Positions 8,193-11,635 are shown, numbered from the stretch's first letter. The stretch: DNA of 11,933 nt from Candidatus Hydrogenedentota bacterium (GCA_045863295.1 BTWA01000069.1:1-11933); one strand, 5' to 3'. Made by a program: numbers and translations. The notes: generated from the letters alone by a model not told the origin.

Positions 8193-9092
8193 TCAGGCGT
8201 CGTCACCTTCGATCACGGCGTTCGTCACCTTATAAACTTCTTCCAAGGTCATGCCGCGGGCGCGCTTGATACGTTCGAGACGCTTTTCGAACTGGCCCAT
8301 GGCAAAAAGCGTGAAGTGGTCCATTTCCATTCCAAAAGGAATGGGGTCGTACTGCGACAGGGACTCGGCGATGATTCCCATGGCGGGCTGCAACAACTCG
8401 TTCATGGTGTCTTCGATTACCTGCCACAGACTTTCGTCTTCGGCCATGAGGCGGGACAATAGAAATATTCCGTAGGCGATGTGGCGGGCTTCGTCCTGCT
8501 TGAGCAGGGAAATCCCTTTGCGTTGGCCCGGAAGGATGTTGAACTTGTCGAGCACCGTGAAATAGGCATGGTACCCGGTTTCGGCCAGCACGCCTTCGAC
8601 AATCAGGTTGTACGTGGCGGAGGCGCGGCAAAGAGCCATGGGTGAAACGTCTTTACGCAACGCGTTCAGCGCGCTGGGCAGCGCTTCGTAAAACAGCATC
8701 TGGTACATGGGCCCATGGAACCGCGTCAGATCCCCGGGATCGCCGGCAACCTCCGTGAAAAACCGGCTGAAGAAATCGCAGTGCTTCGCTTCTTCAAAAA
8801 GAAACGTCGTCAGATACAGCTCTTCTTCAATGTGGCCCTGCTCAGCGACGACGGATATGAGGGGTAATAGATCGATGGTGACTGCCTCTTCACCGGCTTG
8901 AAACATCGAGGTGAGATGGAGAACGACTTCCCGCTCGTCGTCTTTCAGGGACCGCCAATCAACACGGTCTTGCGAAAAATCGATGTCCGATGGATTCCAT
9001 ATGCCCAGCCGCTTCGCCTTCTCGTACAAGACCATGGGAGGAATCTCGCGGCGCAGTCCACGCGACGTTGTGGCAAAAGCGACATGGCTCAT
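8193..9092 (-). CDS. R2-like ligand-binding oxidase (R2lox; Mn/Fe ferritin-like)
   Basis: LYEKAKRLGIWNPSDIDFSQD, AGEEAVT, EEAKH, YNLIVEGVLAETGY and DEARH follow the R2lox pattern known from Mycobacterium and Geobacillus enzymes. Start placed at ATG 9092 (upstream GGAGA). No RNR large subunit adjacent. Confidence 0.92.
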   Translation of the reverse strand: MSHVAFATTSRGLRREIPPMVLYEKAKRLGIWNPSDIDFSQDRVDWRSLKDDEREVVLHLTSMFQAGEEAVTIDLLPLISVVAEQGHIEEELYLTTFLFEEAKHCDFFSRFFTEVAGDPGDLTRFHGPMYQMLFYEALPSALNALRKDVSPMALCRASATYNLIVEGVLAETGYHAYFTVLDKFNILPGQRKGISLLKQDEARHIAYGIFLLSRLMAEDESLWQVIEDTMNELLQPAMGIIAESLSQYDPIPFGMEMDHFTLFAMGQFEKRLERIKRARGMTLEEVYKVTNAVIEGDDA

Positions 9093-9461
9093 GAGTGCAC
9101 GGTCTCCGATTAATGAAACGCTAATTGTTCCGAATCCGGTTCGCGGAGTTGCACGAGGTCCCCGCATCCCCCAAAGTATTGCACAACGACCTTGCGAAGT
9201 TTGCCCCAGCAGACAAACCGTTGCGCATCAGACTGTACAAACGAACCGCTAGAATTCAACGTGGCCGCGCAATGGAGCCACCTGAACTGCGGGGGGACTG
9301 GCATCCCCGAATAGGGGCCTCGGGGGTGGATACCGGGGTAACACCTACCCGATCCCGTATTCGGAAACAAATCATAACTTATTTATTTACAATTGTTTGG
9401 CGATTTTAGTAGTTTTGCTCTGCCGCAATCCGAGATGAGGGGAGACTTTTGGGTGTTCGTA

Positions 9462-9470
9462 TGCTATTAT
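9462..9470 (+). promoter_or_regulatory. Candidate extended -10 promoter (TG-c-TATTAT)
   Basis: TGCTATTAT lies ~14 nt upstream of the first paired base of the structured element, predicting a start near 9476-9478. The -35 position (GAGACT) is poor. Confidence 0.55.
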
Positions 9471-9476
9471 CCAAAG

Positions 9477-9760
9477 TGACCATTGGGCTGGACATGGGTG
9501 GAAGCCGCCGTCAGGCGATCTTCCGCGAGGGTGTTAAGTCTAGTCCGGCAGTTGAAACGGCATCAGTTCCACCGTCCGGAACTGAGCTTGGGACGCAGCC
9601 TCTTCGGGGGCGCAGCCGTTGCCGGAACAGTTGAAGACCACTTGCGGGGTTTTTCTAGCATCCCGTCTTTCCAAACGTGCCTCAGATGCGTTTCCTCCTT
9701 TCGGAGACGGAATCCAGCGACTAGGTGCTTGGTTTGGCGGCTCCACCCTGGCCCATTTAA
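9477..9760 (+). ncRNA. Putative large structured non-coding RNA, family not recognised
   Basis: Hand-identified helices: 9484-9490/9749-9755; 9496-9509/9736-9748; 9510-9516/9727-9733; 9540-9545/9719-9724; 9544-9550/9620-9626; 9557-9561/9615-9619; 9563-9570/9578-9585; 9598-9611 with a cUUCGg loop; 9658-9662/9685-9689. G-U pairs favour the + strand. A promoter candidate lies upstream and no credible protein is encoded. Confidence 0.65.
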
Positions 9761-9824
9761 TCGTCCCCGCGTGGCTTCGCGCCCAGTAGTTACTTGCGAC
9801 ATGTGTTGCGGGTCTACTGTTGCC

Positions 9825-11018
9825 TTATGCCAAGACCTTGGCAATCGCCTCACACAAGGGATCCATATTGGCATCTGTCATTCCGGCGACGTTGATACGT
9901 CCGGATCCCACGATGTAGATGGCGTAGTCCCGTTTGAGGGTTTCGACCTGATCTTTGGTCAATCCCGAAAACGAGAACATGCCCCGCTGGGGAATGAGGA
10001 ACGAAAAGTCCTTCTTCACGCCTTTTTTCTTAAGGGTTTCCACAAAAACGGTGCGCATGCCGTTGATTCGGTCGCGCATGTGTTTCAGTTCGCCTTCCCA
10101 TTCCTGGCGCAGGGCGGGATCGCCGAGAATCGTGGTCACGATGTAGGACCCGTGGGCAGGCGGGTTGGAGTAGTTGGCCCGAATGGCGCTCTTAATGTGG
10201 CTGAAAGCCTTTTGAGCGGCATCTTGTGAATCGCCAACGACGGTCAAGGAACCGACACGCTCGTTGTAGAGGCCAAAATTCTTGCTGAACGAAGAGCAAA
10301 TGAGCAATTCCTGGCCGGGGGAGAGAAATTCGCGCAAACCGGCGGCATCTTCCGTCAAGCCGTCGCCAAACCCCTGGTAGGCAAAATCGAACAGGGGAAG
10401 CCAACCCTTCTCTTGGGCAATGGCGGCAATCGTCTTCCATTGCGCCGACGTTGGGTCGATACCGGTGGGGTTGTGGCAGCAGGCATGCAACAACACGACA
10501 TCGCCCTTGGGGACCGCTTTCAAGGCGTCGAACAATGCATCCAGTTTCAGTCCCTGTTGAGCGGCATCGTAATAGGGATAAGTCTTGATCGGGAGACCCG
10601 CGGCCGTGAAGACGTTCGGGTGATTGGGCCACGTGGGATCGGACAACCATACGGTGACCTCACCCAACTTCTGCCGGACAAAATCGGCGGCTACGCGCAG
10701 AGCGCCAGTGCCGCCGGGGGTGTGGGCAGTGGCGGCGCGCTTTGCCGTCACGACTTCATGGGACGCGCCAAAGATCATTTCCTGAACAACCTTGCCAAAC
10801 GCATCATCACCGGCAATGCCGACATAGGCTTTGGTCTTCTCGAATTCGAGGAGTTTGGCCTCGGCCTTCTTGACCGTGTTAAGCACCGGTGTCGCGCCGT
10901 TGGCATCTTTGTAGACGCCGACGGAAAGATTGATCTTCTTGGGATTGGGGTCGTTCTTGAAGGCGTCCGTCAGTCCAAGTATGGGATCGGCAGGCGCCAT
11001 GTCGAGCGAGTTAAACAT
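9825..11018 (-). CDS. aspC: Aspartate/aromatic amino acid aminotransferase (class I PLP, AspC/TyrB subfamily)
   Basis: APADPILGL, KINLSVGVYKD, TPGGTGALR, LHACCHNPTG, DFAYQGFG, SSFSKNFGLYNERVG (PLP lysine), SGRINVAG. Start placed at ATG 11018 (upstream AAGGA). Confidence 0.95.
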   Translation of the reverse strand: MFNSLDMAPADPILGLTDAFKNDPNPKKINLSVGVYKDANGATPVLNTVKKAEAKLLEFEKTKAYVGIAGDDAFGKVVQEMIFGASHEVVTAKRAATAHTPGGTGALRVAADFVRQKLGEVTVWLSDPTWPNHPNVFTAAGLPIKTYPYYDAAQQGLKLDALFDALKAVPKGDVVLLHACCHNPTGIDPTSAQWKTIAAIAQEKGWLPLFDFAYQGFGDGLTEDAAGLREFLSPGQELLICSSFSKNFGLYNERVGSLTVVGDSQDAAQKAFSHIKSAIRANYSNPPAHGSYIVTTILGDPALRQEWEGELKHMRDRINGMRTVFVETLKKKGVKKDFSFLIPQRGMFSFSGLTKDQVETLKRDYAIYIVGSGRINVAGMTDANMDPLCEAIAKVLA

Positions 11019-11357
11019 GTCCGGAAATTCCTTGTGCTTCCCCATTTGGGATATTCGCGCTTATGCGCACCGGCCCAAAGGCCATATGTGGGGGGAGTTG
11101 CAGCAATGATACGCGGGATGCCGGGGGGAAAACAAAATACAGGAGATTAGTCATATACGTAGACCCAATCGCCGATGCGTTCGGTGGGTTCGCCATAAAT
11201 TCTATCAGGGTAGTTTTCCCTCGTTCCCAAAAAGCTCCGCTTTATCTTCTTCTCCGTACTAAACGGAAATGCCTTCAACGCGAAAGGAGGCCCCATGCTG
11301 GCGTCGCACACCTCCAACCCGCACATCAGCAATAACCGCCTTCCATTGAATCGTCCC

Positions 11358-11386
11358 ATCTGCGCCCATCGGCGTTCATCTGCGGA
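11358..11386 (+). repeat. Short ATC-phased tandem repeat, copy 1
   Basis: ATCTGCGCCC-ATCGGCGTTC-ATCTGCGGA; a related copy lies at 11848-11875. Confidence 0.65.
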
Positions 11387-11423
11387 TAAAACTCCTCATC
11401 CTTCCCACACCTCCGCCCAATCC

Positions 11424-11635
11424 CTGTTCAGCACCGGCTTCTGGCAAACCGCCGACATAGACGACGTCCGCTTCACCGGCTCCAACCTCAAAACCACCAC
11501 CACCTGCAACAACGCCAAAGAACTCACGTCAATGGCCATGACCCCGGCGGCACCACCACCTTCACCTACGACGACAGGGGCCGCATGACCCAAAAAGCCA
11601 ACAGCCGCTTCACCGCCGACTACACCTACCGCTAC
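11424..11635 (+). pseudogene. Frameshifted RHS/YD-repeat gene fragment
   Basis: The frame of ORF 11295 gives ADIDDVRF...TTTTCNNAKELTSM. Shifting frame at the C-run 11542-11545 continues as GGTTTFTYDDRGRMTQK...TADYTYRY, i.e. YD-repeat units (YDxxGRL/M-like). No RHS core (PxxxxDPxG) is seen. Boundaries are approximate. Confidence 0.7.

Follow-up and report, generated by a model that had tools for sequence, protein, structure and literature searches.

Positions 9,477 to 9,760 of an 11,933-nucleotide stretch of DNA from Candidatus Hydrogenedentota bacterium (GCA_045863295.1, BTWA01000069.1:1-11933; the whole stretch is referred to below as the window) very probably form an independent gene on the + strand, with a probability that we put at about 0.9. 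Its product would be a stable, abundant and structured non-coding RNA (ncRNA) of ~270-285 nt, belonging to an uncatalogued family with members in four genera. The element is housed in a gap of 657 nt between an R2lox-like gene and a class I/II aminotransferase gene. The original prediction, made from this sequence alone, described an independently transcribed, large + strand RNA of no described family. That description is supported by a promoter block present in 14 of 14 copies, by contigs from four of four RNA runs, by covariation and by the lack of any match in Rfam.

Thirteen distinct homologues were collected, which together with the window copy give 14 copies of the element. The first BLAST search, against 60 relatives, recovered a core of 30-59 nt (window 9653-9711) in six genomes belonging to the same family, several of which retain the R2lox and aminotransferase genes as neighbours. 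A pattern scan covering one genome per species returned 11 loci, four of them identical to loci already in the set. Nine of the 11 are titled Candidatus Hydrogenedentota, Hydrogenedentes or Hydrogenedentales, one 'uncultured Nitrospiraceae' and one 'uncultured bacterium'. With one homologue as the query, BLAST matched 14 of 135 genomes of the phylum. Two covariance models were built, R1 from the 3' domain and R2 from the middle P2-P3 arm, the latter without the window copy. R1 matches the window at 9636-9743 on the + strand and found the same 14 genomes among the 54 of the family, with one copy in each. Across the phylum it matched 15 of the 135 genomes. The additional match (G068, 27 bits) has no R2 match, lacks the CCUCC hairpin and lies at the apparent 3' end of a coding region; it was taken as chance. 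The same was concluded for weak BLAST matches in three other genomes (G018, G047 and G044; 28-33 nt, E 0.0015-0.007), which involve other parts of the query and have no R1 match. A pattern scan of metagenomes gave five loci, two identical to known homologues and three in which the -10-like pattern does not stand upstream at the distance expected, these last again being taken as chance.

The RNA-bearing genomes fall into four genera, namely the window's own, g6 (6 of 6 genomes), g12 (5 of 5) and g9 (2 of 3). In the remaining g9 genome, which gave no match, the R2lox and aminotransferase orthologues each lie at the end of a contig, and the locus was therefore probably lost in an assembly gap. 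A tree of a single gene, the aminotransferase (30 rows; from the best 30 matches, one locus for each genome), unites g6, g9 and g12 in one supported clade (99/96) and places the window's genus outside it. This position fits the window copy being the most divergent of the set, and a single origin of the RNA is compatible with the tree. With its filters off, R1 reached at best 15.2 bits (E 0.053) in the aminotransferase flanks of 17 family genomes that lack the RNA, and these flanks contained no R2lox gene. As far as we searched, the RNA family is restricted to four genera of one Hydrogenedentota family.

Covariation among the homologues, named as a check when the element was first proposed, is present, and the helices are kept by compensatory changes. 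In a MAFFT alignment of the 13 homologues that was not fitted to structure (A1; consensus of 71 pairs), 86.6% of the cells are paired. Both-sided changes occur in 25 of the 71 pairs, compared with 15.1 +/- 2.1 in shuffles (0 of 500 as high) and with 6-9 when the partners are slid. Most of this signal comes from the P3 hairpin and the P2 arm. The closing stem P1 shows compensated changes between lineages (U-A to C-G, GAAGC/GCUUC to UUGC/GCAA, and UAAGC/GCUUA). The consensus fold reaches -43.98 kcal/mol with 59 pairs on the + strand versus -30.97 kcal/mol with 31 pairs on the - strand, and all 13 homologues fold better on the + strand, by 10-29 kcal/mol each. The claim that the G-U pairs favour the + strand also held, with G-U in 122 cells versus A-C in 37, a count that is biased in that the structure was derived from + strand folds. 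The minimum free energy (MFE) fold of 9477-9760 (+) has an energy of -117.0 kcal/mol. Set against dinucleotide shuffles, a second check named at the outset, this is only modestly low (z -2.04, 6 of 200 shuffles as good; for the - strand z -2.56, 3 of 200), and the case therefore rests on the homologues and the RNA contigs, not on the single sequence. Judged by its sequence, the element is non-coding: no frame stays open in every copy, and most gap runs (132 of 163) have a length of 1 or 2 nt.

The architecture shared by the family comprises the closing stem P1, the long P2 arm and the 3' hairpin P5; 13 copies also have a 5' hairpin. The P2 arm holds the hairpin P3, which has an invariant loop GCCAUUC and a bulge UGGUGCA, and a short variable hairpin. 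In the window, the MFE fold contains the long stem that had been predicted to join the 5' and 3' ends. Its 5' strand (9484..9516, +) pairs with its 3' strand (9727..9755, +) through TGGGCTG 9484-9490/TGGCCCA 9749-9755, GGGTGGA 9496-9502/TCCACCC 9742-9748, GCCGCC 9504-9509/GGCGGC 9736-9741 and GTCAGGC 9510-9516/GCTTGGT 9727-9733. The equivalent stem of the homologues carries the compensatory changes described above, and one library contig (X12) ends exactly at 9755. Helix P2a pairs TTCCGCGAG (9521..9529, +) with CTTGCGGGG (9641..9649, +), the latter including a conserved UGCGG. It is kept in 11 of 13 homologues, shows a both-sided change at one pair (A1 columns 56-61/202-207) and was enforced in the homology-guided fold. 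The branched middle domain (9544..9626, +) appears in the MFE fold much as it was first drawn. It is closed by TCCGGCA 9544-9550/TGCCGGA 9620-9626 and contains AACGGC 9556-9561/GCCGTT 9615-9620, an 8-bp hairpin at 9563-9585 and a cUUCGg hairpin at 9598-9611. The top R2 match in the window (9519-9650, +; 17 bits, E 0.0046) aligns this domain to the covarying P2-P3 arm.

Four smaller helices of the original prediction were not confirmed. Complementary words exist for the GCGA-loop hairpin, CTAGTC/GACTAG, GAAGACC/GGTTTTT and GCATC/GATGC, but none of them is in the MFE fold, and each is topologically incompatible with the conserved P2a (9521-9529/9641-9649) or with P5 (9663-9670/9703-9710). The proposed CTCC/GGAG pairing is an alternative to the 8-bp P5; of the two, P5 is favoured by a single compensatory change, seen in one homologue. 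When the conserved helices P2a, P5 and P5a are enforced, the fold lies just 2.2 kcal/mol above the MFE. The window copy departs from the family architecture. It has no separate 5' hairpin, its 5' end joining the closing stem, and it has lost the apical part of P3 with the GCCAUUC loop and has an extra cUUCGg hairpin flanked by a CGCAGCC repeat. By eye, a tertiary pairing between loop and bulge of P3 is possible, GCCA/UGGU in 13 copies and CGUCC/GGACG in the window (9563-9597). If the positions are equivalent, this may be a compensated change.

The block upstream of the RNA is common to 14 of 14 copies and consists of (G/A)AGAC(A/T), a 17-nt spacer ending in TG(C/G), and TAnnnT; an A-tract is found further upstream in 13 of the 14. 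In the window, the -35-like hexamer GAGACT (9442..9447, +), which all copies carry at the same distance, is followed after 17 nt by the extended -10 TGCTATTAT (TGn + TATTAT; 9462..9470, +), whose pattern is TG(C/G)TA(T/C/G)nnT throughout the family. An extended -10 had indeed been noted just upstream of the element. Its position places the start of the RNA at ~9476-9479, and the end is inferred at ~9755-9761. The sequence TTTAAT, also noted earlier, is present directly after the closing stem (9756..9761, +) and could be a weak stop signal; no terminator was called there. In six homologues, a strong hairpin with a T-run is found instead, ~60 nt past P1. At the loci L003, L004, L025, L026, L028 and L032, a G+C-rich hairpin lies between the RNA and the convergent aminotransferase gene, in some cases preceded by an A-run and followed by a T-run; it is likely a two-way terminator and may serve both genes. 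A weak - strand terminator, composed of the A-tract and a G-run...C-run upstream of the -10, was also considered and rejected. Its stem would comprise 4-5 bp with a loop of 9 nt, neither the window nor L003 has it, and the strand tests speak for the + strand.

Sequences of the element are present in RNA libraries. Thirteen runs recorded as RNA contain 0.54-0.59 of the sampled words of 9400-9830; their labels are bioreactor, soil or aquatic metagenome, plain 'metagenome' and two coded organism names. Contigs of all four RNA runs that were mapped, from four studies, cover 9491-9751, 9505-9750, 9498-9755 and 9505-9745 with 0 differences. The whole contig record, 246-282 nt, corresponds to the element, and one of the four contigs has sequencing-adapter letters at its flanks. 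On the flanking genes, the contigs of these four runs yielded only a 41-nt piece with 90-95% likeness at 9886-9926 (X8), where missing cover is no evidence. Contigs from four studies that end near the same places hint at a discrete, abundant transcript of the predicted size.

The RNA matches no catalogued family. Rfam 15, with 4227 models that include RNase P, tmRNA, the signal recognition particle (SRP) RNA, 6S, raiA, OLE, ROOL, GOLLD, Y RNA, RsaE/RoxS, riboswitches and ribozymes, gave 0 matches in the window at gathering thresholds. In E-value mode, the region 9150-9900 produced four matches far below threshold (E 0.35-9.6, 8-17 bits versus cut-offs of 50-80), and six homologue loci returned one unrelated match at E 0.25 and no other. 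ARAGORN found no tRNA-like or tmRNA-like part in the RNA. A housekeeping identity was rejected: RNase P RNA (contig C14, 320 bits), tmRNA (C19, 183 bits), SRP RNA (C2, 60.7 bits) and 6S RNA (C28:74379-74561, 53.1 bits versus a cut-off of 46.4) are all found elsewhere in the assembly G000 above their cut-offs. The initial statement that the RNA is none of these, nor raiA, thus stands, and so does the view that it is neither a cis-acting riboswitch nor a miniature inverted-repeat transposable element (MITE). The element is single-copy, with 1 match in the 6.34-Mb assembly and 1 copy per genome in all 14 genomes, and not the many near-identical copies of a MITE or other repeat; plasmid and phage collections contain no match to it. 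A riboswitch or leader acting in cis was set aside with the RNA on the + strand, both neighbours on the - strand and a downstream neighbour that varies. Titles and abstract openings of the literature pairing Hydrogenedentes or Hydrogenedentota with structured, non-coding or small RNA revealed no such RNA, and those of the broader literature only generic small RNA (sRNA) papers. The RNA is a new family, of a general kind that is familiar (orphan structured or anti-Shine-Dalgarno-type bacterial RNA).

The 3' hairpin P5 (9663..9710, +) is the most conserved part of the family. Its stem, CCGTCTTT 9663-9670/GGAGACGG 9703-9710, carries an inner hairpin (9673-9693) and a 9-nt bulge. The sole segment identical in 14 of 14 copies, GCGUUUCCUCCUUUYGGARAC, is located in P5, with GCGTTTCCTCCTTTYGGARAC identical in all of them. 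In the favoured fold, CCGUCUUU is paired with GGAGACGG, and the 9 nt CCUCCUUUC bulge out below the inner hairpin with a predicted mean unpaired probability of 0.70-0.92 across all 14 copies. This invariant, predicted unpaired segment (CCTCCTTTC; 9694..9702, +) is identical to the 3' tail of 16S rRNA, the anti-Shine-Dalgarno (anti-SD). The 16S 3' ends of three RNA-bearing relatives read ...CACCTCCTTTCT (...GGAUCACCUCCUUUCU), and the bulge thus equals the anti-SD tail over 9 nt. The tail was read from these three relatives, the 16S gene of G000 (C14:148158-148870) being cut by a contig end and comprising approximately the first 700 positions. The 7-nt loop of the inner hairpin is CCUCAGA (CCTCAGA) in the window and CUCCUAC in the other 13 copies. 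In these predictions, the RNA thus has the exposed, C-rich, SD-complementary motif of an anti-SD sRNA. A short-word BLAST for other rRNA mimicry, against three rRNA loci, gave only chance-level 8-11-mers. The weight of the motif comes solely from its being the invariant and predicted unpaired part, not from the match itself.

Transcription of the RNA probably begins from the conserved extended -10 promoter. The closing stem P1, of ~20-27 bp, locks both of its ends and encloses the branched P2-P3 arm and the 3' hairpin P5. We propose tentatively, at a little below even odds, that the RNA acts in trans by pairing with Shine-Dalgarno (SD) regions and competing with 30S subunits. The invariant bulge CCUCCUUUC on P5, possibly assisted in 13 of the 14 copies by the CUCCUAC apical loop, would be exposed in vivo as a copy of the 16S anti-SD tail. 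It would then pair with the SD regions of mRNAs, compete with the 30S subunit and lower translation, the remainder of the fold serving as a nuclease-resistant scaffold. A broader version seems improbable to us: the RNA would be a copy of the 16S 3' tail on a nuclease-proof scaffold, made abundantly and acting on translation initiation globally. As such it could be an SD sink that brakes translation and favours weak-SD or leaderless mRNAs, or a decoy for a factor that targets the anti-SD, for example a nuclease, a toxin, or a ribosomal or hibernation protein. If true, a globally acting RNA of this sort would be a regulatory ribonucleoprotein (RNP) of a so far undescribed type. If the copy of the 16S tail works as proposed, it would amount to a dedicated, abundant RNA that tunes the docking of ribosomes on mRNAs.

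Several observations weigh against the gene assignment or against the proposed pairing. The library contigs reveal neither the strand nor the exact ends of the RNA, and DNA carry-over is possible. A simple consensus scan called 0 promoter or terminator sites here; the promoter was missed because just 3 of the 6 positions in the -35-like hexamer agree with TTGACA. Covariation in P5 is near nil (1 compensatory pair, 37 of 500 shuffles as high), so that the bulged-out state of the motif rests on energy models, and CUCC/GGAG may pair in place of the P5 bulge arrangement. Nine nucleotides shared with an rRNA locus of 4.5 kb are, as a plain match, no more than chance would give (BLAST E = 12, with many other 9-mers alongside). 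A search for targets by complementarity in G000 found the complement of the 9-mer at 54 places and no specific target; when extended, the best matches prove to be ordinary strong ribosome-binding sites or fall within a coding sequence. No extended complementarity was seen in the start regions of the R2lox genes next to the RNA. The window copy is without the second C-rich loop, the GCCAUUC loop and the UGGUGCA bulge of the other 13 copies; either these features are dispensable or the window RNA works somewhat differently. Finally, the strong sequence conservation within the P1 and P5 helices is equally suited to recognition by a protein.

This last point leads to the other live reading of function. 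The original prediction offered a ribozyme or an RNP scaffold, and of these the scaffold still has to be considered seriously alongside SD pairing, even if we find it doubtful. As a protein-binding RNA, the element would be an RNP scaffold or sponge whose protein binds the C/U-rich bulge, the conserved P1 and P3 elements, or both. The partner could be a recogniser of the 16S 3' tail or another binder of single-stranded pyrimidines, titrated or carried by the RNA. Stable RNPs, those of 6S RNA and Y RNA among them, typically combine locked ends with abundance, and the RNA resembles these in its locked ends and in its presence in the RNA libraries of several studies. In addition, sequence itself is conserved in the helices, where the inner 14 bp of P1 and the whole of P5 are almost constant among the 13 homologues. 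There is also no obvious sequence for the invariant GCCAUUC loop or the UGGUGCA bulge to pair with, and no mRNA target emerged. However, the only candidate partner examined, Ro/TROVE, does not track the RNA, its gene being found in only 3 of the 54 family genomes (G000, G125 and G134), in 1 of the 14 that bear the RNA (G000) and in no g6 or g12 genome. Moreover, the window copy has a different P1 sequence and no GCCAUUC loop, so that neither can be a universal protein site, and the CCUCC segment alone is universal.

The remaining explanations are much less probable. The abundance and stability of the RNA, its long end-to-end closing stem and its own strong promoter-like block would suit a regulator that binds RNA polymerase in the manner of 6S RNA, as a second RNA of this type in the clade. 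We regard this as very unlikely, with a separate 6S RNA at C28, no Rfam 6S match at the locus, and a fold that is branched and has no large central bubble between long irregular helices. An action in cis on the - strand, either for the R2lox-like gene as its structured 5' leader or riboswitch or within the aminotransferase mRNA as its 3' untranslated region, would agree with the - orientation of both neighbours, with the somewhat better folding of that strand relative to shuffles (z -2.56) and with an R2lox-like gene in almost the same genera as the RNA (15 of 54 genomes). The consensus fold, every homologue, the G-U over A-C count (122 versus 37 cells) and the reading direction of the conserved promoter-like block all point to the + strand, and the neighbours themselves are not constant. 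In g6, a serpin gene is the left neighbour, R2lox is on another contig, and a hairpin flanked by T-runs on either side separates the RNA from the aminotransferase gene; in several g12 genomes, the aminotransferase gene lies 2-7 kb off or on a different contig. We give this explanation next to no weight, and no more to an RNA that cleaves itself or is catalytic in another way. The large fold of several domains, its invariant unpaired nucleotides and the possible complementarity seen by eye between loop and bulge of P3 (GCCA/UGGU, or CGUCC/GGACG in the window) would suit a ribozyme, but no Rfam ribozyme family matched, the contigs cross the whole element unbroken, the gene is single-copy and unlinked to mobile elements, and nothing suggests a substrate.

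The RNA shares features with several known systems. C-rich, anti-SD-like motifs occur in RsaE/RoxS and the hairpins of RNAIII (Staphylococcus aureus, Firmicutes) and in the CcsR or 'cuckoo' RNAs of Alphaproteobacteria. Like these, the RNA described here has its own promoter and a C/U-rich loop or bulge motif, predicted to be unpaired, that could pair with GGAGG, and in 13 of 14 copies it has two C/U-rich motifs on one hairpin arm. It differs from them in belonging to another phylum and in having no match in sequence or structure (4227 Rfam models). It is also 3-5 times longer than RsaE or CcsR, and its ends are locked by the long closing stem. Whereas the RsaE/CcsR-type motif is a CCCC/UCCC loop, the motif here is a 9-nt bulge identical to the 16S tail, and its pairing with targets is a proposal. 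With 6S RNA (RF00013) it shares abundance, stability, a length of a few hundred nt, a long terminal helix at its ends and a promoter of its own; it differs in its branched fold without a central bubble, in coexisting with a separate 6S RNA in the genome and in the lack of a match to RF00013. Y RNA/YrlA, the partners of Ro (Rsr), likewise have a terminal stem of conserved sequence formed by the two ends and a structured module inside, but the present RNA has no corresponding Rfam match and no tRNA-like module (ARAGORN). As an observation on this system, G000 carries a Ro/TROVE-domain gene at C20:72010-73020 (-), with 117.5 bits summed.

Large orphan structured RNAs are known as well, among them raiA motif RNA, OLE, ROOL, GOLLD and the IMES RNAs. 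The RNA resembles them in being lineage-restricted, well folded, apparently abundant, of unassigned function and found through covariation and environmental RNA. Unlike them it has no Rfam match, and it is smaller than OLE, ROOL and GOLLD and occurs in four Hydrogenedentota genera. Large, well-folded bacterial RNAs without a known job are rare, and several later proved to involve new biochemistry. To our knowledge, Hydrogenedentota have no cultured model, and no regulatory RNA of the phylum was described in the literature searched. For an uncultured phylum, the support is unusually good, comprising a promoter block, covarying helices and discrete contigs from the RNA libraries of several studies. 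The RNA thus offers a first handle on post-transcriptional control in Hydrogenedentota and a marker transcript for metatranscriptomes.

Both flanking genes are on the - strand, as originally described. The left neighbour, divergent from the RNA, is the R2lox-like ferritin-fold gene (8193..9167, -; PF00268, 69 bits). Its likely start is the ATG at 9092, and its relatives align from residue 26 on. The right neighbour, convergent with the RNA, is the class I/II aminotransferase gene (aspC-like; 9825..11045, -; PF00155, 289 bits). The R2lox-like gene is the divergent neighbour of the RNA in three genera. Downstream, a convergent aminotransferase gene is found in most loci; at L005, a + strand open frame of 515 aa without a Pfam family starts within the RNA. 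The R2lox-like gene is present in 15 of the 54 family genomes (g1; g12, 5 of 5; g6, 5 of 6; g9, 3 of 3; g31, 1 of 1), with two paralogues each in g9 and g12, a distribution that nearly matches that of the genera bearing the RNA. This co-distribution alone is no proof of a functional link, because related genomes have many genes in common. The spacer from the likely R2lox start to the RNA promoter (9168-9440) contains a G+C-rich hairpin region (9293-9349) and an A+T-rich stretch (9366-9420), and may hold the R2lox promoter or leader. Its sole echo in Rfam is a chance-level match to 2dG-II on the - strand (13.9 bits versus a cut-off of 60). In one g12 genome, a tandem repeat with the unit CGTGCTCGTGTCT directly follows the RNA on its 3' side (L008, ~1600-1660).

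The start region TTCAACGCGAAAGGAGGCCCCATGC occurs at four places, at 11270-11300 (+) of the window, where it precedes an open reading frame at 11295-11588 (+), and on contigs C37, C32 and C29 of G000. This recurrence points to a small family of paralogous genes that share an identical ribosome-binding site. At C1:308418 (+) of G000, a strong ribosome-binding site precedes the gene for a small histone-H1-like protein rich in lysine and alanine (MAMAKKKAAKKKAAPKKK...). Finally, C52:22815 and C55:18249 (-) of the same assembly are two near-identical paralogues that begin with MSTLQT(F/I)QFWLEPDREIPRFKRLHW... and have an unusually long Shine-Dalgarno match, CGAAAGGAGGAA(A/G).

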